Assembly (NCBI GenBank): GCA_964343875.1
Contig: CAYFJW010000001.1
Location: forward strand, 81,345-145,344
Source of the DNA: Candidatus Woesearchaeota archaeon
GTDB lineage: Archaea; Nanobdellota; Nanobdellia; SCGC-AAA011-G17; UBA489
Length of the DNA: 64,000 nucleotides
Reading direction: 5' to 3'
Positions 9,594 through 61,604 of this stretch are shown piece by piece. Each line of letters opens with the position of its first letter. The first letter of the stretch is position 1. The position numbers and the translations under genes are program-made. The notes under the pieces are model-generated. The model was not told where the DNA came from, did not search any database, and saw nothing but the letters and a program-made list of their open reading frames with translations.

Positions 9594-10976
9594 ATGGCAC
9601 AAGACTTCGATGCACTTCTACAATTCTATGCAAGAAAAGATATCCAAGAAGCAATATTAGAACTAGCAGAAAACAGGGAAGTCACTGGTTCTTTCAATAT
9701 GCAAGCATTCGGTAAGCGACCAGATGTTCTCCAATACAAATCAGACATCTTCGAACTAGCAAGGAAGGGGATTACCTCGTTCCATGTTTCAGAAGAAAGG
9801 TGGTCCAACCCACTAGAAATCAGAACAGGCATGTCAAAAAAAGAATTAGACCAAATAAGAATCGGATGGGATTGTGTCTTAGACATTGATTCAACATATG
9901 TTGAATACTCCCAAATAACTACATATTTACTCATTGAGGCATTAAAATTATACGGCCTAAAATCGTTCGGAGTTAAATTCTCCGGAAGAAAAGGATTCCA
10001 CATAATAATCCCCTTTGAAGCATTCCCAAAAGAAGTTGATGGAAAACCAATTGAAACAATGTTCCCCGAAGGTCCAAGAATGATTGCAGACTTCTTGGGA
10101 GAAAAAATATACGAAAAACTATCAGAGATGATTCTAAAAGACCAAAAGATAGAGGACATTGTGAAACTAACAAACAAACCAATTGAAGAACTAACAGATA
10201 AAAATGGCAACTTCAACCCATTCTCAATAGTTGATATCGACACCATCCTAATCTCCTCAAGACACTTATTCCGTTCAGTTTATTCAATCAACGAGAAATC
10301 CTGGTTAGTGAGTGTTCCAATAGATCCCAATAAAATAATGGAATTCAAACTAAGGGATGCAAAGTTTGAAAATGTCAAAACAGATATTAAATTCTTAAAA
10401 AAACCAGAAAAAGATGAGGCTAGAACCTTAATACTGCAGGCCTTTGACGAATCAAGAGAGCAATTCATACAGGGAAAGAAATCAACAATAGTAATAGAAG
10501 GAAAAGATTACTTCGAAGAAGATTCAACAAAGAGAGAATTCAAACCAGAAGACATAGACAACAAATTAGTAAAAGAAGAATACTTCCCTCCCTGCATTAA
10601 AGCCCTTCTAAACGGCACAGAAGAAGACGGGAGAAAGCGTTCCTTATTCATATTAATGAACTTCTTCAAAGGACTCAACTTCTCACAAGCAGCAATCAAA
10701 GAAAAAATAGACGAATGGAATAAGAAAAACTATGAGCCATTAAGAGAGGGCTATGTCATAGCCCAATTAAACTCCTTGATGAGAAGCTCCACTTTAATGC
10801 CTCCAAATTGTAAGAACGATGCATATTACACCTCTTTAAGAGTCTGCAAACCCGACAACTTCTGCCAGAAAATAAAGAACCCTCTAAATTACACTACAAA
10901 AAAGATGTGGATAGAAAAACAAAACAAGAAGAAAAGAAGAACTTCAAAAAAAGTATCAAAAAAACAAAAGAAATAA
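9594..10976 (+). CDS. priS: DNA primase small catalytic subunit PriS fused to a Cys-rich PriL-CTD-like C-terminal domain
   Basis: Catalytic motifs WDCVLDIDSTY (DxD) and FSGRKGFHIIIPFEA (SGxRGxH). The C-terminal ~150 aa carries four Cys (FPPC, PPNC, RVC, NFC) and a Lys-rich tail. Confidence 0.75.
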   Translation: MAQDFDALLQFYARKDIQEAILELAENREVTGSFNMQAFGKRPDVLQYKSDIFELARKGITSFHVSEERWSNPLEIRTGMSKKELDQIRIGWDCVLDIDSTYVEYSQITTYLLIEALKLYGLKSFGVKFSGRKGFHIIIPFEAFPKEVDGKPIETMFPEGPRMIADFLGEKIYEKLSEMILKDQKIEDIVKLTNKPIEELTDKNGNFNPFSIVDIDTILISSRHLFRSVYSINEKSWLVSVPIDPNKIMEFKLRDAKFENVKTDIKFLKKPEKDEARTLILQAFDESREQFIQGKKSTIVIEGKDYFEEDSTKREFKPEDIDNKLVKEEYFPPCIKALLNGTEEDGRKRSLFILMNFFKGLNFSQAAIKEKIDEWNKKNYEPLREGYVIAQLNSLMRSSTLMPPNCKNDAYYTSLRVCKPDNFCQKIKNPLNYTTKKMWIEKQNKKKRRTSKKVSKKQKK

Positions 10977-11525
10977 CCTCTCATAATTACTATCGCTTAA
11001 ATCCTTCTTATAATCTTGCAAAGCCTTAACCAACTTAGCACTATCTTTACACAGGCCCCGCTTAAATAAAAACTGACAAAATTGAGTAACATTCTTCGGA
11101 ACCAAAACCCTTTTACATCTCTCAAAATCAATTAAAACAGGCTTACCATTAACAACAATAACATTCTTAGTAATCCTATGCATCTCAAACTTGTTAACTT
11201 TCAACTTATCCATAACTCTACACTGTCTTAATATCTCTTTCAAAACAGAATCCTCATCAGAACAACCAACTAAATAGTCAGATAAATGAACACCATCTAA
11301 ATATTCCATAAAAAGAGACTTTTCATCAGAAAAATACAACTTAGGACCAATTCCCTTTTTGTTTAACTCCTTTAACCAGTAACTTTCAGTCTCCAATCTA
11401 TTAACTGCATCACTCTTAGGGTTAGGAATCTTAACAGCACAAACCTTTCCCCTGTACCTCCCGAGTTTAACTATGCCTCGCTTACCCTTCCCAATTATTT
11501 TTCCAAAAGACTTATTTTCCGCCAT
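10956..11525 (-). CDS. Atypical small protein kinase-like protein (Bud32/RIO-sized)
   Basis: Gly-rich loop GKIIGKGKRGIV and VAIK-like CAVKIP motif. The catalytic loop is unusual (EMHRITKNVIV), and LIDFERC occupies the DFG-like position. Confidence 0.4.
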   Translation of the reverse strand: MAENKSFGKIIGKGKRGIVKLGRYRGKVCAVKIPNPKSDAVNRLETESYWLKELNKKGIGPKLYFSDEKSLFMEYLDGVHLSDYLVGCSDEDSVLKEILRQCRVMDKLKVNKFEMHRITKNVIVVNGKPVLIDFERCKRVLVPKNVTQFCQFLFKRGLCKDSAKLVKALQDYKKDLSDSNYERLFLLFF

Positions 11526-11598
11526 TTAAGAGCCTATAGACCCATCCTATAGAAAGTTATTTAAATACTCTTCCCATCGGATAAAGAATAAAGGGGTC

Positions 11599-13335
11599 GT
11601 GTTAATGAGGTTAAGATTAATTCCAAAAGTTCTAATATTCATCTCAATTGTATTAGTCCTATCTTTGACAGTTAGCGCAGATAATCACACTTCTTCAGGA
11701 GAATTTGACCCAACAGACAGCTACTTATGGCTATCTGAGCAATGTGAAGCAGGTAATTGTGATGATGATCTAACTGCAACAGCATTCTATGCAGTGGCAA
11801 TGAAACGTTCTGGATATGGAAACACATACGGGATGCAAGCAATAAAGCACATTCAAGCAGAAAAGAAAGAATCAGATTCATGTTTCCCTTCAGGTAGCTG
11901 TAACATCAAAGAAACTGCCATGGCTTATTGGGCATTATCAGAATATGGAGAAGATACTGCAGGAATTGAAGATTACATCAGAGACGAATTAGACGTTGGT
12001 TTAACAGATAACTGGTGGTTAGAAATAGTTACAACTGCCCAGAACCAATACTGTACAATTGGCTATCCAAAAGAAGGTGTGCAAGAACAAATTGACATCC
12101 TAGTTGACCAAGGAACTTTCCCCGAATGTAACGCTGGCCAGCCAGAAACTTTTTTCGATCTAAATGAATGTATTGAAAACAACCCAGTAAATTCAAATCC
12201 AGCGTTAGAATTAACAATTGACTGTTCAGCAATAGGACAAGGAACAATAATCTCAATATTATACAACTCTGGGCCTTCATTCTACTTGACGGAGCAAGCA
12301 ACAACATCCAAGTACCAGACACAAGTAAAGAATGCCTGTCATTCAAGATCTGGAACCTGCGACAAAGACACCTCACTTTGGGCCAATTGGGTATTAGATA
12401 GCAGAAACTCAGACATTGACACAGGATTATTCTTACTAACACTGCACGACTCCTTAGACCCAATAGACACAGCACTATTATACTTAACAACCTCGGACAC
12501 AAATAGAAAGGATACACTACTAACGGAACTAATTGATTTGCAAAGACTTGACGGAAGTTTTAACAAAAACAACTTAGAAACAGCAACAGCAATCTTAGCA
12601 TTATCTGCTTCAGGTTCAACAGATGAATTAAACGCGGCAATTGGATACTTAGAAGGCTCAGTAAGATCAGAAGGTTCATGGGACGGAGATGAACTAACAA
12701 CTGCATTAGCACTTTATTCAGCATTCACAGGTGCATCGATAGATTTGCCCCCTCTAGGTCCGGCACCACCAGGATCACAACCACCTCCAGCAGTTTGTGG
12801 AGACAACTATTGCGACCCACAATTTGAAGATTATAACACATGTCCTAAAGACTGCCCGGCATTAGGTAACCCCGATTGCGTAGAAAACAATAAATGCGAA
12901 GTTCAATTTAATGAAAACTCAAACAACTGTCCAATTGATTGTTTCTGCGGGGACGGAATATGCGACTCAACAGAAAGCGGCCTTTGTGAACTAGATTGTG
13001 GCGCGATAGCAACACCCCCGCCAGGAGTTCCACAACCACCAATACAAATTGAAGAAGAAGGCGGACTCCCTTGGATAATTATGTTAATAATTTTAATATT
13101 GCTAATCTTGGCAGTATATCTTGCATACAACCATTACTTCTCAAAGAAGAAGAAACCGAAGAGCACATATTCAAACAGACCAACTTTCAATCCTTCGGCG
13201 GGAGGATTTAGTGAACCAAAACAAAGACCAAGGGCTCCACCAAGGCAAGCAAGACCCACAAGAGGAAAGAAATCCAAAGCAGAGTTAGAATTAGAAAAAT
13301 CATTAGGTGAAGCCAAGAGATTGCTTGGTAAATAG
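11599..13335 (+). CDS. Secreted type-I membrane protein with prenyltransferase/terpene-cyclase-like alpha/alpha-toroid repeats and a Cys-rich stalk
   Basis: Signal peptide, then repeats (WALSEYGEDTAG, LWANWVLDSRNSD). A Pro-rich linker leads to a Cys-rich module (CGDNYCDPQFEDYNTCPKDCP...). A TM helix (LPWIIMLIILILLILAVYL) and a basic tail follow. Confidence 0.5.
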   Translation: MLMRLRLIPKVLIFISIVLVLSLTVSADNHTSSGEFDPTDSYLWLSEQCEAGNCDDDLTATAFYAVAMKRSGYGNTYGMQAIKHIQAEKKESDSCFPSGSCNIKETAMAYWALSEYGEDTAGIEDYIRDELDVGLTDNWWLEIVTTAQNQYCTIGYPKEGVQEQIDILVDQGTFPECNAGQPETFFDLNECIENNPVNSNPALELTIDCSAIGQGTIISILYNSGPSFYLTEQATTSKYQTQVKNACHSRSGTCDKDTSLWANWVLDSRNSDIDTGLFLLTLHDSLDPIDTALLYLTTSDTNRKDTLLTELIDLQRLDGSFNKNNLETATAILALSASGSTDELNAAIGYLEGSVRSEGSWDGDELTTALALYSAFTGASIDLPPLGPAPPGSQPPPAVCGDNYCDPQFEDYNTCPKDCPALGNPDCVENNKCEVQFNENSNNCPIDCFCGDGICDSTESGLCELDCGAIATPPPGVPQPPIQIEEEGGLPWIIMLIILILLILAVYLAYNHYFSKKKKPKSTYSNRPTFNPSAGGFSEPKQRPRAPPRQARPTRGKKSKAELELEKSLGEAKRLLGK

Positions 13336-13341
13336 GGGGTT

Positions 13342-14622
13342 ATGATGGCCTTCAAAACAAAATATTTTTTATTCCTACTTCTTATTCCCATAGCACTTGC
13401 ACAATTAGACCTAATTGAAATAAATTCTCAAAGAACAGAACTATCACAAGGAGAGGTCTATCAAGCAGAAATAACACTAAACAACCCAATAACTGAATTA
13501 AAGAAAACAAACATTAAACTATATTCCTCAGAGAACGCAATAATTCCTGTGTCACCTTTCTTGAACGAACCAGGAAACAACCACTATTATCTCTACTTTG
13601 AAGTCCCTTACAGCATAGAAGACGGGACATATCAATTAAGAATACAAGACCAATCATTCCTGGTAAATGGCGTTCTTCAGCAATTTGAAGGCATAGAAGA
13701 AATAACAATCACAAAGTCACAACCATCTGTTGCAGTAACTCCCGGTTATTTCTTATTGCCTGAGGGAGAAACAGGACAGATTAGCATAACAACTACTTCA
13801 AAAGACATTCAAACAAACATATTTTTCCTAACTCCAAAATACATAACACACCCCTACATCACAGAACAATCAATTAACCCAAATGTACCAAGAACATTCA
13901 CTTTCGACTATAGCACTTTAAATGCAACATCCTCAGAGCTAGTAGTTAACTCTGGAACAAAACAATACAAAATTCCAGTATTAATCGAAGGTCAAATTGA
14001 AAACAATCAAGAAAACATCACCCAAAACCAACAAACAAGCCCAATTACATTCTTTGTAGATAACAACCACCTAGAAAAAACAATAAAATCAGACCAGGCA
14101 ATTGAAGGCAATCTCTACATGGCCAACACCCTAAACTCCTCAATAACCGACATAACCTCAGAACTAACAGGAAACCTAAAAGAAATAATAACAATGGGTT
14201 CTATCCAACCAATACCTGCTTCATCAAACTTCACAACATTCATGAGCATAAATCAAGCAAAGGATGCAAAAGAAGGCATTTACTCGGGAGATTTCATTCT
14301 TTCTAGCGAACTTTACAGCTCATCATTAGAAATAACAATAACTGTAGAAGAAACAGAAACAACAAGAGAAATCTTAGAACCTCCAGAAGTAACCGAAACA
14401 ACAGAGACCGCAGAACCAGAAGCAAAAGCTCCAATTGAGGAATTCATCCCTTGGGACCTTTCAGACGGATACGAAGAAGAATCAAAAGTGGCAGCAAATC
14501 CCTTCATATATCTAATCATTATTTTTGTAGTAATCGCAGTTGTAATTTTCCTATTATCGGGTAAAAAATCAACTAAGAAGAAAACATTCAAAGATTTAAT
14601 GAAAGAAAGTCAAAAGAAATAA
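13342..14622 (+). CDS. Secreted membrane-anchored surface protein (Thr/Glu-rich stalk)
   Basis: Signal peptide MMAFKTKYFLFLLLIPIALAQ, many NxS/T sequons, an ETETTREILEPPEVTETTETAEPE linker, and a C-terminal TM plus KKSTKKK tail. Confidence 0.5.
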   Translation: MMAFKTKYFLFLLLIPIALAQLDLIEINSQRTELSQGEVYQAEITLNNPITELKKTNIKLYSSENAIIPVSPFLNEPGNNHYYLYFEVPYSIEDGTYQLRIQDQSFLVNGVLQQFEGIEEITITKSQPSVAVTPGYFLLPEGETGQISITTTSKDIQTNIFFLTPKYITHPYITEQSINPNVPRTFTFDYSTLNATSSELVVNSGTKQYKIPVLIEGQIENNQENITQNQQTSPITFFVDNNHLEKTIKSDQAIEGNLYMANTLNSSITDITSELTGNLKEIITMGSIQPIPASSNFTTFMSINQAKDAKEGIYSGDFILSSELYSSSLEITITVEETETTREILEPPEVTETTETAEPEAKAPIEEFIPWDLSDGYEEESKVAANPFIYLIIIFVVIAVVIFLLSGKKSTKKKTFKDLMKESQKK

Positions 14623-15048
14623 TTATTTTTTAGCCTCTTCAACAACACCCAACTTCTTCTTCATAACTTTATTCTCTGCATGCATATTCTTTAACAACAT
14701 ATCATACTGGTGTAACCTAGCAATTAGGTCATTCCACATATTGTCCATAATCTCTTTCTTAAAATTAAAACTTCCTGGATCAATAACTTCTATTGAACTA
14801 GGCATAAAATCAAAACAGAAACCAGTCACATCATCCATATTCTTAAAACCTAACTCAACTTCGACAAATTTACTCCAAAAAGGCCTACCTTCAATACTAG
14901 TAGTTTCAGAAACCTTCTCAGAAAGCACTTCTATATCTTTAGCTTCTTTAAGCTTCCCAAGTATCATATCCATGGTCTTGTTAACATGCTCTTCTGGGGA
15001 ACCCATTAACTCCATGATTGCCTTGATCGTTACAGCTGGTTTTTCCAT
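14623..15048 (-). CDS. Hypothetical protein
   Basis: 141-aa ORF with gene-like codon usage. I recognise no family. Confidence 0.35.
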   Translation of the reverse strand: MEKPAVTIKAIMELMGSPEEHVNKTMDMILGKLKEAKDIEVLSEKVSETTSIEGRPFWSKFVEVELGFKNMDDVTGFCFDFMPSSIEVIDPGSFNFKKEIMDNMWNDLIARLHQYDMLLKNMHAENKVMKKKLGVVEEAKK

Positions 15049-15050
15049 TT

Positions 15051-16076
15051 TTACATCCTAAACAACACATAATAAACGCCCAATCCACCAATGAGATATA
15101 TGAGATAAAATGCCATTCCATCCCACCATTTCCTCTCTTTAACAGCGATTTTGGCGTCTTCATTAACCTCATTTACAGCATTTATATCCCTTTCTATTGC
15201 TCCACCCTTCAACAAAGTCCTGTCTTCTTTCTCAAAAACCCTCTGCCCCTCGACCCATATCAAACGCATATCTTTCTCCCTGAAACCCTCAACAACAAGT
15301 ACATATTCTCCTTCCTCGGGATAAGCAGAATTATTACAAACAGCAACAGGAAACTCAACAACCTGGCCATCATGGGCCTCGACCCTAAAGCTGCTAACAA
15401 CATCAACGCCCATTAAATAAGCCTTAATCTTCTCAGTTCCATCTCTATTATTCCAAATGGCAACCCTAACCTTTACATTACCACAGATATTGGGAGAATT
15501 ACTATCGACACCTTCGATATGAATATAACCATTTTCATCATTAACCTCTTCAATTTCTTTATTCTCTTCACTAGTTTCATTGCCTTCGCTCTCATTACTT
15601 GGCCCGTCATTAATCTCACCAGGACTAGGCACACAAGAGTATTCTTCTTCACCGTAACAAACAGCATTGCCGTCACCATTGCCAATTGATCCATCGTAAC
15701 TTTTACTATCGACTAAGTCCATATTCAAGTTGTACAATGAAACAACATCTTCCGCATTACTTAGTCCATTCCCGATAGTTTTCCCGGCCGAATAAATACT
15801 AACAAATTCCAAGTCAACATCGAAATAAGGAGGGTAACCCTCTTCAACAATTAAATTAATCTTACTATTCCCGCTTCCATTCACTAAAAGTATTATATCT
15901 TGGCTTGTTGAATCTTCAATTGTCCAACCATCAATCAATGTCCCCTCACTAAATATAACCTCCACGTATTCCTTGTTATTATCGCTCCCAGAAGGATTAT
16001 ACATGATCTCAGTTATCTCAGCATTTACAAAAGTAGAACAAAGAACAAACACCAAAACATAAATCCATCTAAACAT
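15051..16076 (-). CDS. Secreted membrane-anchored protein with an N-terminal lamin-tail-domain (LTD)-like module
   Basis: Signal peptide MFRWIYVLVFVLCSTFVNA, then EITEIMYNPSGSDNNKEYVEVIF (LTD signature INEI..NP....EfvEL). Acidic stalk and C-terminal TM. Confidence 0.5.
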   Translation of the reverse strand: MFRWIYVLVFVLCSTFVNAEITEIMYNPSGSDNNKEYVEVIFSEGTLIDGWTIEDSTSQDIILLVNGSGNSKINLIVEEGYPPYFDVDLEFVSIYSAGKTIGNGLSNAEDVVSLYNLNMDLVDSKSYDGSIGNGDGNAVCYGEEEYSCVPSPGEINDGPSNESEGNETSEENKEIEEVNDENGYIHIEGVDSNSPNICGNVKVRVAIWNNRDGTEKIKAYLMGVDVVSSFRVEAHDGQVVEFPVAVCNNSAYPEEGEYVLVVEGFREKDMRLIWVEGQRVFEKEDRTLLKGGAIERDINAVNEVNEDAKIAVKERKWWDGMAFYLIYLIGGLGVYYVLFRM

Positions 16077-16912: not shown

Positions 16913-19900
16913 CTAAATTCCTGTCTTAGCAACAGGTCCAGCTAGATCCTCAGAAATCACATCTACAACGCTCTCAATGACTCCTGAGCCTCCAGAACCG
17001 CCGTCTAAGCCCATTCCCTCAGTCTTCTCCAAGCAAATGACTCTAACTTCTTCATAGTCAAGAGTAATCTGGGTCGATAGTTCGGCTTTATTTCCTACAA
17101 CAACTTTTTCAGTCTTTGTAGGTCTAACACTTTCCCAAGAATTTATTTCAGTGATTATTGGCCAAGCCTGATTAATATAGTCGTTCCATGTTGCTCCAGG
17201 TGTGCTGTGGATATTATCAATCATTGGTTGCAATAAAGCCTGAATCTCTGGTTCAACATCGTCATGGTAAGGGTTTCCGTCTTCATGCCCAATCTTATAA
17301 GTTGTATACAACCAAGCACTTACATCTGTTGGTAAATTCTTTGCAGTTAGTTTTATTGTTGCACTTTTACCTGCCCTGTCAAAGTTAACACCATACCAAC
17401 AATAACTAGTTCCTTCCTGATTCCTAACAGTAAATGCACGAACAGTATCTTCTTCATTTAAGTCATCATCAACCATCAACGTTCCAGGCGCATCATGTAA
17501 TAGCTTAGATAACCAGAACACTGGTTTGTATACTCCACTTCTATCAATCATGTTTTCATCCCATCCAAGAAATCTTCCCTGTATTGTTCCGGGTTCATGA
17601 ACATTACTATAGAGTTGGAACCAACCCGCACGGTCTATATCATAATTAGCACTATTTGCAAGCAAAGCCATTGTACTTGAAACAGCATGTATGCCATCGC
17701 CATTGATCATTGGCTTACCGGGCAGACCATCACTAAACTCGTCCATATTTGTTCCTAAAAATGCACCATTATTTGCCCGCCAATGCTCAAGCGCCTGCTC
17801 CGGATCCCCCCCAGGAGTCATTGTATAGGGGTCAGGGTTGTAGTGGTGGTAGTGATGTGTTGCCTTTAGACCCTTAGCATCAAGAGCTTCAAAGACCTCA
17901 ATCGGTACATAGACTTTAGTTCCATTCTCTGAATTTAAAGTACCAAAGAATGCAGAAGTCCCATCAACTCCGACCTCATTACTCGGATCAACCTCATAAA
18001 CCGCCTCAACACCTGCAACCGTTAAATCAACAAATTCTTCCATTGTTGGCCACCAACAATCTCCAGGCGCCTTACAAACTTCCTTCCAATTCTCAACGAC
18101 AAAGTTTGGCTCATTCCATATTATGAAGTACTTGATCCCCTTTGAATTGTAATGTCTTACTACATCCTTAACATAATCTTTCCATGCTTGCATGTCCTTT
18201 GCAGGACCACTTGATTCATAAGTAACACATTCTGTACCAACAAAATCCGAACAATAAGCAATACCTTCTTCTGAAGGAATCCCTTTTATAACAACCATTA
18301 CTTTTGCGCCATTCTTCTGGAGTTTAGTGTGCACTCTGGTGGGAGGGAAACCTCTCTCATACCTATCAAATCTGTGCCCAGTCCTTACATGTATTCCCTC
18401 AACCCCAACCTCATTAATATAAGCATCTAAAAACTTAGGATGCATAAATGGCCCAATAACATTTCCAAAACCTTTAGTTAATCCATGAACATCCTTAACA
18501 ACTTGATCGGTATAAACATTCATCTCAAACTCTTTATCTCCCCCAGGTTCTACCTCAATAAACTCCCTCTCTTCTCCACCAATAATGCCTACACTCCCAG
18601 GCCCGCCCTCGCAAGGCTCGTAACCTGTCTCAAATCCATAGGACTGGAATTCCTCCAAACTCATCTCTTTTGTGTAATAGATAGTGGGGTTATCCACACA
18701 ATAAGTATTGCCACTTATGACAAGCCCATCTTTTGAATCTTCATGTAAATTAAGAAGTCTTTCAGTATTAATATTATCCTCGAAATTGTTTCTTATCAAA
18801 ATATTCTTAGCACCAACCCTATTGTTTCCATCAATCGTAGCATGCACACCAATTGCAACATCCACATCACTGATTGTATTCTCCTCAATACTACAATCAT
18901 GACACCCTTCAACACCTATTGAGCCCTTGTATCTATAAGTTCCATCCAAGGTTATCCTTTCAAAAACGTTTCTAATTGCATGAACGTTAGTTGCAACGGG
19001 ATCAACTCCAGCAGTTCCAGCCCAATTATTCCAACAACAACCGCCAAGTATCAATGCATGATTTCTCACAATCAAATCATGGAAATAGTTGTCAATATAA
19101 TAAACACCGCTAGCACCACCCTTCGCCCAAGAAACAGCACCGGGATCACGTACACTTAAAGAGTCATCATGGAACTCATTCTGTATTATCCATGCACCAT
19201 TAACACCAAATGCATCAACACTTTCACCTTCACCAGCAATGTTAAAAAATTCATTCCTATAAATTAAAACATTTGCAGATTCAGTTGTAGTTTTAATTCC
19301 ATCTTCGTATGCCTCACTTATCTTATTATTATAAACAACCAGATGGTCAGCAATATCTCTATCCCAGATAGTCATACAAACTCTGATGTAGCATCTAATA
19401 TCAAAGCCTTCAAGAGTTGTATACTTTCCGCCAAAATGGATCTTTCCGTCATTATGTCTGGCCTCCATAATCACATCCTCGCCCTCGTAAGCAAAGATCC
19501 TGATAGGCTTATCAGAAGTCCCTTGGAACTTTGCAGTAACACCTCCTTCATCTAGGATATAAGTTCCAGCCCCAACTGCAATAGCCTCACCGGCAACAAC
19601 GTCATACTTCTTCATTGCCTTCAATGTCGCACATGGACCATCAGCACCACTAATATACCGTGGGTACAAACAATTATTATCATCACTTGCCCCTTGTTCG
19701 TTCTGAGCAATGTAATATATTTTTTCAGGCTCAAAATTAAGCATATCTAAAAACTCTTGCGGAACATCGGAAGAATGTCCTCCGCCAACATCCAACATCC
19801 AACCTTCTCCATCACCACTTACCTCTTCTCCTTCAACAGTTTCAGGATCATCAACTAAACCAAAGAACCTAAAGGGAAAACTAAAGAAATTATCTACTCT

Positions 19901-20344
19901 TTTTGCAATAACCTCAATAAATGTTGTTCCTTCATTCCTTTCAATCTTTTTAGGGGTTATTTTCACCGGCTGAACTTTCTTAATGAGTGTATCATCTTTT
20001 AGAATCTTTTTTTCCTTTGGAACAATACCAAAACCACTTTCTACCTCATCAAATATTTCCTCAACAACAGTGTTTGGTGCATCGTCAACAGTTACATCAT
20101 CAACTACAGGAGGAACAGTCTTTACTTCAGGAACCTTGCTCCTTTGATAATCATCGATTTTAGCAATATCATCACCACAAAGAGTCACCCACTTACTCTC
20201 TTCTTCATACCAAACGGTTTTACATTCAACAAAGGAATCATCCGAGGCACCGCCAACACTACTAAAATCAGAGACAGCTCCAACCACGAACACGCTAGAT
20301 AAAAAAACTAAGCACAAAAGTAGTATGTTCTTCAGTCGGATCAC
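16913..20344 (-). CDS. Large secreted multidomain protein: right-handed parallel beta-helix domain plus clan GH-A (TIM-barrel) glycoside-hydrolase-like domain
   Basis: 1143 aa with signal peptide MIRLKNILLLCLVFLSSVFVVGAVS. Beta-helix repeats (NNKISEAYEDGIK...IYRNEFFNIAGEGESVDAFGVNGAWIIQNEFHDD). A YFIIWNEPNF motif is typical of GH-A acid/base glutamate. Confidence 0.55.
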   Translation of the reverse strand: MIRLKNILLLCLVFLSSVFVVGAVSDFSSVGGASDDSFVECKTVWYEEESKWVTLCGDDIAKIDDYQRSKVPEVKTVPPVVDDVTVDDAPNTVVEEIFDEVESGFGIVPKEKKILKDDTLIKKVQPVKITPKKIERNEGTTFIEVIAKRVDNFFSFPFRFFGLVDDPETVEGEEVSGDGEGWMLDVGGGHSSDVPQEFLDMLNFEPEKIYYIAQNEQGASDDNNCLYPRYISGADGPCATLKAMKKYDVVAGEAIAVGAGTYILDEGGVTAKFQGTSDKPIRIFAYEGEDVIMEARHNDGKIHFGGKYTTLEGFDIRCYIRVCMTIWDRDIADHLVVYNNKISEAYEDGIKTTTESANVLIYRNEFFNIAGEGESVDAFGVNGAWIIQNEFHDDSLSVRDPGAVSWAKGGASGVYYIDNYFHDLIVRNHALILGGCCWNNWAGTAGVDPVATNVHAIRNVFERITLDGTYRYKGSIGVEGCHDCSIEENTISDVDVAIGVHATIDGNNRVGAKNILIRNNFEDNINTERLLNLHEDSKDGLVISGNTYCVDNPTIYYTKEMSLEEFQSYGFETGYEPCEGGPGSVGIIGGEEREFIEVEPGGDKEFEMNVYTDQVVKDVHGLTKGFGNVIGPFMHPKFLDAYINEVGVEGIHVRTGHRFDRYERGFPPTRVHTKLQKNGAKVMVVIKGIPSEEGIAYCSDFVGTECVTYESSGPAKDMQAWKDYVKDVVRHYNSKGIKYFIIWNEPNFVVENWKEVCKAPGDCWWPTMEEFVDLTVAGVEAVYEVDPSNEVGVDGTSAFFGTLNSENGTKVYVPIEVFEALDAKGLKATHHYHHYNPDPYTMTPGGDPEQALEHWRANNGAFLGTNMDEFSDGLPGKPMINGDGIHAVSSTMALLANSANYDIDRAGWFQLYSNVHEPGTIQGRFLGWDENMIDRSGVYKPVFWLSKLLHDAPGTLMVDDDLNEEDTVRAFTVRNQEGTSYCWYGVNFDRAGKSATIKLTAKNLPTDVSAWLYTTYKIGHEDGNPYHDDVEPEIQALLQPMIDNIHSTPGATWNDYINQAWPIITEINSWESVRPTKTEKVVVGNKAELSTQITLDYEEVRVICLEKTEGMGLDGGSGGSGVIESVVDVISEDLAGPVAKTGI

Positions 20345-61506: not shown

Positions 61507-61604
61507 CGGACCCGATAGGATTTGAACCTACGACCTTCTGCTCACTTCTGAGTCCGAAGACTTAATAGAAGGCAGACGCTCTATCCAAACTGAGCTACGG
61601 GCCC
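61507..61604 (-). tRNA. tRNA-Arg (anticodon TCT) with a ~23-nt canonical-position intron
   Basis: GGGCCCG acceptor (G3:U70), D-arm GCTCAGTTTGGATAGAGC, anticodon stem TCTGC...GCAGA. The mature loop is CTTCTAA after removal of TTAAGTCTTCGGACTCAGAAGTG. The intron pairs with the anticodon in a BHB-like arrangement. The gene lies 2 nt from tRNA-Cys. Confidence 0.65.

Follow-up and report, generated by a model that had tools for sequence, protein, structure and literature searches.

A predicted surface-protein pair with an (alpha/alpha)6 toroid ectodomain at a conserved locus of Woesearchaeota

The window analysed here is a stretch of 64,000 nt from a Candidatus Woesearchaeota archaeon (contig CAYFJW010000001.1 of assembly GCA_964343875.1, positions 81,345 to 145,344). 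It is archaeal, has a GC content of about 36% and contains, next to a ribosomal-protein/SecY block, genes for prefoldin, Hjc, a fused primase and a class I LysRS. An earlier reading of the bare sequence (the original prediction) picked out four open reading frames (ORFs), here called A, B, C and D, as a cluster of surface proteins of the kind found in DPANN archaea. The four ORFs are present, each as one copy in the window, and can be taken as real genes because each has many homologues; direct searches gave 39 for A, 13 for B and 114 for C. The nearest homologues, and the GTDB loci that carry them, are with few exceptions labelled Woesearchaeota or Nanoarchaeota, in agreement with a DPANN origin. 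Direct scans of the four proteins against NCBIfam and a Pfam copy scanned without PF27325 gave nothing above threshold. The genes and their putative expression signals are as follows.

11560-11567, forward strand: TATA-box-like TTTAAATA upstream of A, read from the sequence; putative promoter element
11593-11597 (approximate), forward strand: Shine-Dalgarno-like GGGGT, about 8 nt before the ATG at 11605; putative ribosome-binding site
11599-13335, forward strand: gene A, 578 aa, type-I membrane protein by prediction
13342-14622, forward strand: gene B, 426 aa
14623-15048, reverse strand: gene C, 141 aa
15051-16076, reverse strand: gene D, 341 aa
16098-16106, reverse strand: TATA-like TTTATTTAA, about 22-30 nt upstream of the D ATG, in the 52-nt gap after hjc

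The three genes for anchored proteins had been described as consecutive, but the order is that of two convergent pairs, A then B on the forward strand and D then C on the reverse, rather than a co-oriented row. Within the pairs the genes are close: 6 nt separate A from B, which is preceded by a GGGGG element resembling a ribosome-binding site, and 2 nt separate D from C. The stop codons of B and C abut with zero spacer (TAA/TTA, 14620-14625), which leaves no space for terminators, so that the two transcripts must overlap or end within the opposite gene. The TTTATTTAA element may be a separate promoter for D and C. The true start of A is probably the ATG at 11605, since the N-termini of its homologues begin MRL. 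By hydropathy, A, B and D each have an N-terminal signal-like segment and a single C-terminal transmembrane (TM) segment and C has neither, just as the original prediction described three anchored proteins and a cytoplasmic one. The basic tail that it placed after each TM segment is present in A and B, but D has only 'RM' there, and the tail of A is basic but also ends in a conserved 20-residue helix. The parts of A are listed here.

11599-11679, forward strand: signal-peptide-like segment, aa 1-27 (...LTVSA/DN)
11701-11988, forward strand: N-terminal half of an (alpha/alpha)6 toroid, aa 35-130
11989-12348, forward strand: beta-sandwich inserted into the toroid, aa 131-250
12349-12753, forward strand: C-terminal half of the toroid, aa 251-385, with QW-like repeats LQxxDGSF and YLxxxxxxxGSW
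12796-12999, forward strand: Cys-rich acidic stalk, aa 400-467, three 4-Cys modules after a Pro-rich linker
13066-13140, forward strand: single TM helix, aa 490-514, hydropathy 3.04, modelled as a helix over 492-514
13141-13263, forward strand: Pro/Arg/Lys-rich cytoplasmic linker, aa 515-555, predicted disordered, with a predicted local distance difference test score (pLDDT) below 50
13264-13335 (including the stop codon), forward strand: C-terminal amphipathic helix GKKSKAELELEKSLGEAKRLLGK, aa 556-578, modelled as a helix over 560-575

A PDB search with the single sequence of A returned noise only, but a profile built from 33 homologues matches squalene-hopene cyclase (SHC; 2sqc) with a full-sequence E-value of 5e-14 and aligns a QW-like repeat, at about aa 298-355, to several SHC repeats; only two QW-type repeats are recognisable by sequence. 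Ten of the 33 family members match PF13243, and three match PF07678, the family of the complement thioester-containing domain (TED). An AlphaFold2 model made on the 33-homologue alignment has a mean pLDDT of 82, exceeding 90 over most of aa 40-380 and reaching 96-98 in the C-terminal half of the toroid. It shows about 12 helices, split by a nine-strand beta domain, and has the (alpha/alpha)6 toroid of class II terpene cyclases and SHC. The structural matches with low root-mean-square deviation cover about 230 residues, the summed length of the two toroid halves, which suggests, from the aligned lengths alone, that the beta insert falls outside these alignments. The prenyltransferase- or terpene-cyclase-like domain proposed for A is thus upheld by both the profile match and the model.

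Conservation was counted over the 33 members for motifs and over 137 representatives for residue positions. The signal segment has a hydropathy of 2.57 over aa 7-25, and Ala27 is conserved at 85%. The N-terminal toroid half carries the family signature C[FW]PxxxCx[IV]K[DE]T[AS] at aa 95-107. Eight ectodomain Cys are conserved (95, 101, 152, 177, 191, 209, 247 and 254), five of them (152 to 247) in the beta-sandwich, and presumably form four extracellular disulfides. With the signal segment, the one TM helix and the 8 + 12 conserved Cys of toroid region and stalk, the ectodomain is predicted to be extracellular.

The families that share this fold are defined by catalytic features, and none of those examined is found in A. 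DxDD, the general-acid motif of the terpene cyclases, occurs at no conserved column among the 33 members and nowhere in the window protein; by sequence pattern alone, the equivalent of the SHC 'DxDDTA' reads 'N-I-K-D/E-T-A' in the A family. The thioester motif C[GAS]E[QN] (CGEQ in TEDs) is absent from the toroid in all 33. The ectodomain has no conserved His, and hence no Zn site, and outside the stalk no conserved Cys beyond the eight presumed to be disulfide-paired; the Zn-binding Asp/Cys/His triad of the protein prenyltransferase beta subunit is lacking. A single ectodomain acidic position, 257 (D/E in 91%), reaches 85% group conservation, which does not match the at least two conserved catalytic carboxylates of the (alpha/alpha)6 glycoside hydrolases (GH8, GH15, GH76 and others). 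The scores of the A family against TIGR01787, TIGR01507 and TIGR03463 are 14-25 bits, against cutoffs of 322-851. Since A lacks the defining catalytic feature of each of these families and falls below each curated cutoff, it represents a new family-level variation on a known fold. The toroid of A, devoid of every catalytic signature tested, is most likely to be a binding module, and the same absences favour, though only indirectly, glycan or lipid binding as a possible function.

In its fold and in the origin of its repeats A is related to the terpene cyclases, the prenyltransferases and the TEDs, and it differs from each in other ways. With the single-domain class II terpene cyclases and SHC (8zg0, 8paj, 6sbb MstE, 6ij1, 1gsz; PF13243/PF00432) it has QW-like repeats in common, but identity is only 13-17%, those enzymes are cytoplasmic or monotopic whereas A is a predicted extracellular protein with a TM anchor, and A has in addition the inserted beta-sandwich and the eight presumably paired Cys. 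In the TEDs (complement C3/C4, TEP1, CD109, bacterial alpha-2-macroglobulins) a toroid is likewise associated with a beta-sandwich, and these proteins are extracellular or periplasmic, as A is predicted to be. However, A lacks macroglobulin domains and the order of the domains is reversed: the TED of C3 is inserted in a CUB domain, whilst in A the beta-sandwich sits inside the toroid. A third resemblance is to the SCO2321-family membrane proteins (NCBIfam NF053823, a model named for a Streptomyces coelicolor gene and a membrane family according to NCBI). Sixteen of the 33 A members match it weakly (best 1.1e-7), mostly on the toroid repeats, with stalk, beta insert and terminal helix unmatched; scores of 15-22 bits against a cutoff of 300 place A outside that family. 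The families compared also included the transcobalamin- and intrinsic factor-like binders, in which an alpha6/alpha6 barrel precedes a C-terminal beta domain that clamps the ligand. The combination of beta-sandwich insertion, double-disulfide stalk, TM helix, Pro/Arg tail and terminal helix is what distinguishes A.

The stalk had been called Cys-rich and EGF-like. It is Cys-rich, with 12 Cys in aa 400-467; apart from C444, each of them reaches the 80% identity level within the family, with values of 92-100%. It does not appear to be EGF-like: EGF families gave no match to A at E<=1, and the modules have four Cys rather than the six of the EGF pattern. In relatives of A the stalk matches acid_disulf_rpt (3.9e-8), myxo_disulf_rpt (6e-9) and DUF4215 (1.7e-5). 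At three loci (L024, L025 and L027) with no B beside A the A orthologues are 656-688 aa long, and in L027 (8001-10058) the extra length is a greatly expanded stalk with many added 4-Cys modules.

On the other side of the membrane, A has a cytoplasmic tail of 64 residues with 19 Lys or Arg and 8 Pro, four of the Pro positions being conserved at 92-96%. The TM segment is found in 144 of 145 A-family representatives and the median tail is 80 residues. The terminal helix (KAELELEKSLGEAKRLLGK) is the most conserved segment of A amongst close relatives, at 66% identity compared with 56-61% for the folded ectodomain parts, and in 26 of 27 loci its motif forms the very end of the A orthologue, the A ORF of the other (L014) running off the contig end. 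A hidden Markov model detects it in 123 of the 145 representatives, and most of the others show a variant, ELDxTLKKLKEMxK. Along the helix runs a narrow stripe of hydrophobic residues (L, L, L/A, L/M at i, i+4, i+7 and i+10/11), which would fit protein-protein docking or oligomerisation better than membrane insertion. Two more specific roles were considered and rejected. The tail is not a sorting signal common to several surface proteins, as the motif was found in no ORF of the window or the compared loci other than the A orthologues; and a MIM1-like helix, of the kind bound by the MIT domain of Vps4, does not fit because the hydrophobic spacing departs from the MIM1 consensus in a manual comparison.

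A belongs to a large uncharacterised family of Woesearchaeota and Pacearchaeota. An exhaustive profile search at E<=1e-30 gave 707 clusters (50% identity); among the top 150 matches, most span nearly the full profile length, and every member listed is named 'hypothetical protein' at its source. Castelle et al. (2021; PMC8204110) reported that Woesearchaeota and Pacearchaeota have in common a module of 51 lineage-specific families, most of them without a known function. Families specific to the two groups may be symbiosis-related and are thought to be key to how these tiny archaea live. The A family plausibly lies within this module. Literature searches on MJ0538 (the family of C, below), on DPANN proteins with a lamin-tail domain (LTD), on SHC in Woesearchaeota and on prenyltransferases in DPANN found no description of these families. 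With some 700 clusters, this uncharacterised family now has a concrete anatomy from which testable hypotheses follow about its ligand, an A-B complex and the partner of the tail.

The product of the adjacent gene also has the form of a stalked surface protein, and its features are these.

14344-14457, forward strand: B stalk, aa 335-372, following a signal peptide and ectodomain
14503-14559, forward strand: B TM helix, aa 388-406, followed by a basic tail

The Thr/Glu-rich stalk reported for B is confirmed and is more exactly Glu/Thr/Pro-rich (of its 38 residues, 12 are E, 7 are T and 5 are P). The ectodomain is non-repetitive, and a mean column identity of 62% over 13 sequences shows that B is not low-complexity. 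B has no Pfam match and its profile finds no relative in the PDB, and Pfam scans of the B family gave weak, scattered matches only. At distant loci, the gene that follows A is a homologue of B (hhalign 96.7% and 66.8%; 17-48 bits), for example at 10302-11723 in L003, 9929-11206 in L005 and 7751-9031 in L028. In place of the Thr/Glu stalk these distant homologues have a Cys-rich juxtamembrane module (...C..G..C......C........CCLGxC), and the same module is found in the A proteins of those genomes, which is why the A profile matches the distant B homologues. This suggests that A and B share or exchange stalk modules.

Neighbourhoods were compared over 30 loci with DNA and 2 contigs known from gene calls only, collected from homologue look-ups and a scan of GTDB species representatives and screened by phmmer and profiles. 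The 21 GTDB loci are labelled Woesearchaeota or Nanoarchaeota except for one 'uncultured Methanosarcinales' and two 'archaeon'. The first of these exceptions (L010, CAZRZP010000015.1) has the Woesearchaeota order of kinase-like gene, A, B, C, D, Hjc and LysRS and an A 53% identical to that of the window, and is probably mis-binned or mislabelled.

In Woesearchaeota the block of primase, kinase-like gene, A, B, C, D and Hjc persists until the identity of A has fallen to about 40%, with LysRS beyond Hjc wherever the locus extends that far; it spans both strands and contains housekeeping as well as surface genes. In a more distant clade (A 23-29% identical; one contig labelled Pacearchaeota), A is still accompanied by a homologue of B and by an MJ0538 gene in convergent orientation, and D is mostly absent, with one possible D relative, lacking an LTD, in L030. 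A B-like gene follows A in 23 of the 30 DNA loci and on both gene-call-only contigs, over A identities from 88% down to 28%, whereas in three species-level loci C comes directly after A without B. An MJ0538 gene lies within about 2.5 kb downstream of A in 29 of the 30 DNA loci, that is, in every locus extending past A. The only place examined where it is missing is the P0025 contig, on which A and B are kept in a wholly different neighbourhood. That A and B remain adjacent even after the neighbourhood has been rearranged indicates that they are a pair behaving as a unit. C, by comparison, is a persistent neighbour from a separate Pfam family, and D is grouped with the others only through lineage-specific synteny. 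The four-gene cluster of the original prediction is thereby narrowed to an A-B operon with syntenic neighbours: the A-B unit stands, whilst C and D prove separable from it.

The genes of the block also evolve at different rates. Identity to the window copies of A, primase and kinase-like gene is 88/90/81% in L007, 55/66/60% in L001 and 42/48/46% in L017, and for B it is 78, 47 and 27% in the same loci. A, present once per locus, is therefore about as slow-evolving as the primase and kinase-like gene beside it, B diverges fastest and D is intermediate. Slow evolution and one gene per locus argue for a conserved ligand or a structural role for A, rather than for a strain-specific host-recognition adhesin.

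From the genes, the computed folds, the topology given by hydropathy, the absent motifs, the synteny and the relative rates, we infer with moderate confidence that A and B, both single-pass surface proteins, are a pair inherited vertically and transcribed together, in which the toroid of A would be a binding module and its tail helix would dock a partner; the binding of a ligand, a complex of A with B, the docking of the tail and any part in cell-cell contact are all proposals. A would display an extracellular, disulfide-stabilised (alpha/alpha)6 toroid from the prenyltransferase/terpene-cyclase/TED superfamily, with its inserted beta-sandwich, held off the membrane on the acidic double-disulfide stalk. 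Its ligand would be conserved across lineages, either a glycan or an isoprenoid-type molecule, and not a strain-specific host protein. Within the cell, the disordered Pro/Arg linker would lead to a helix most likely docking a cytoplasmic partner or driving oligomerisation, so that A would resemble a receptor or anchor coupling outside to inside. B would be the faster-evolving, surface-exposed stalked partner, with D as a further TM-anchored LTD surface protein and C as a cytoplasmic protein, both neighbours by conserved synteny and convergent to A and B. Three points weigh against this proposal. B is dispensable in some lineages, as the three loci without it show; the conserved polar residues K104, D/E105, D/E257 and Q315 could be an unrecognised active site; and the housekeeping-like conservation of A fits a structural envelope role equally well.

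Part of this evidence can be read in other ways. The arrangement may reflect nothing but descent, with the four genes unrelated in function and their order frozen around primase and hjc, which we consider somewhat unlikely. The block does mix housekeeping and surface genes on both strands, and C and D are convergent to A and B. However, mere inheritance of gene order does not readily account for the adjacency of A and B after complete rearrangement of their surroundings, for the juxtamembrane Cys module that they share in the distant clade, or for the persistence of the MJ0538 gene near A despite changes elsewhere. By analogy with SlaA/SlaB, or with the Thr-rich, C-terminally anchored S-layer glycoprotein of haloarchaea, A and B could instead form an S-layer-like canopy and stalk. 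A single, housekeeping-like A per locus, a family very widespread in the lineage without conserved catalytic motifs, and adjacent, co-transcribed genes whose products each have a stalk and a C-terminal TM anchor are all as such an envelope would have them. In a lattice protein, though, one would not expect a cytoplasmic tail that is long, conserved and equipped with a helix of the docking type, N-glycosylation sequons are not enriched in A (1 against 4.5 expected), some lineages manage without B, and we know of no S-layer protein with an (alpha/alpha)6 toroid; an S-layer function seems unlikely. Equally doubtful is the interpretation first put forward, that the four genes are a host-contact adhesin cluster whose toroid binds host glycans or lipids. 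It draws on the DPANN lineage, on the surface anchoring of three of the four products, on the fast evolution of B and D and on the possible link of lineage-specific families to symbiosis (PMC8204110). Yet the four genes are not one unit, as the most distant loci, with A below 30% identity, lack D, and the cytoplasmic C comes from a family of its own; the flanking genes in the same synteny are housekeeping genes (primase, Hjc, LysRS); and A is slow-evolving and single, unlike typical host-range determinants. The description of the locus in the original prediction was largely right, its fold assignments holding except for 'EGF-like', and its interpretation is partly supported.

Two further possibilities give the toroid a more specific task. 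A might serve as a transmembrane acquisition receptor, capturing from the environment or from a partner cell either isoprenoid lipids or some other hydrophobic metabolite or cofactor that is conserved. The barrel, without DxDD, might keep a hydrophobic pocket, and the terminal helix might couple it to a partner, possibly the MJ0538-family protein. The recycling of host lipids by DPANN archaea is discussed in the field, and PMC10936187 lists a reference to it. A receptor of this kind, which we regard as quite improbable, would be a candidate component of a lipid or metabolite uptake route in Woesearchaeota and Pacearchaeota. It would be more surprising still if A were an extracellular (alpha/alpha)6 enzyme, for instance a class II terpene cyclase, a glycoside hydrolase or a transferase of the prenyl or lanthionine type. 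Enzymes are the top structural neighbours of the model, squalene-cyclase repeats are held in common and the four polar positions are conserved, but the DxDD motif is absent and, judged by sequence pattern alone, replaced in the SHC-equivalent position, one conserved carboxylate position and no conserved His are available in the ectodomain, and the scores against the enzyme families of NCBIfam and Pfam are far below their cutoffs.

The features of D, encoded beyond the B-C junction, are the following.

15696-16019, reverse strand: D LTD, aa 20-127, after a signal peptide
15252-15524 (approximate), reverse strand: second conserved region of D, about aa 185-275, after an acidic linker
15060-15116, reverse strand: D TM helix, aa 321-339

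D itself scores below the cutoff for PF00932 (E 0.012; 16.4 bits against 34.3), but 13 of its 14 orthologues match that family, the best with an E-value of 6.2e-27, and D shares the motif ITEIMYNPxGxDNNxEYVE with them. The LTD proposed for D is therefore supported, with membership resting on orthology. Deeper orthologues have a second, canonical LTD. A profile of D found no relatives in the PDB. D resembles prokaryotic LTD surface proteins in having an LTD, identified through its orthologues, and in being predicted to be secreted and anchored; it has no recognisable enzyme domain, only the LTD, one more conserved region and the TM helix, and is an ordinary member of that class.

C belongs to the MJ0538 family (PF27325), named after a gene of M. 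jannaschii, by precomputed matches recorded both for protein P0053, which is 100% identical to it, and for each of its 114 homologues. It has a ferredoxin-like beta-alpha-beta-beta-alpha-beta core, and its structural neighbours include ribosomal S6, Lrp/AsnC-family regulators and ACT domains. The fold is that of the ACT/RAM-like ferredoxin-fold modules, to which C adds a long C-terminal helix. A PDB search with C alone gave noise, a profile search of the PDB found no relatives, and the literature search on MJ0538 found no paper mentioning the family. Four relatives of C (P0151, P0154, P0156 and P0161) are extended at the C-terminus by about 60 aa similar to a winged-helix domain (...LSKFTGINEEELQEHIESLIKEGKIKK...), a hint that the family may act in nucleic-acid binding or regulation.

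Several other genes of the window are worth recording. The primase (9594-10976, forward strand) is a 460-aa protein that matches both PF01896 and PF04104, and is a fused PriS-PriL; in most loci it lies directly upstream of the kinase-like gene and A. The kinase-like gene (10956-11525, reverse strand) is divergently oriented from A and encodes 189 aa with kinase-like motifs (GKGKRG...AVK and ...IDFE). The protein has no Pfam match at E<=0.001, its counterpart in L030 has a weak choline-kinase match, and the gene is conserved beside A in most Woesearchaeota loci. At 16913-20344 (reverse strand) lies a gene for a 1143-aa protein with a hydrophobic, signal-like start and sub-threshold stretches resembling NosD (right-handed beta-helix) and GH39; as it is found only in the three closest relatives (L007-L009), it is a recent addition beside the conserved block. 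Far from the locus, at 61507-61604 (reverse strand) and adjoining tRNA-Cys, Rfam reports a 98-nt tRNA (58.8 bits) that ARAGORN does not list and that is probably an intron-containing archaeal tRNA.

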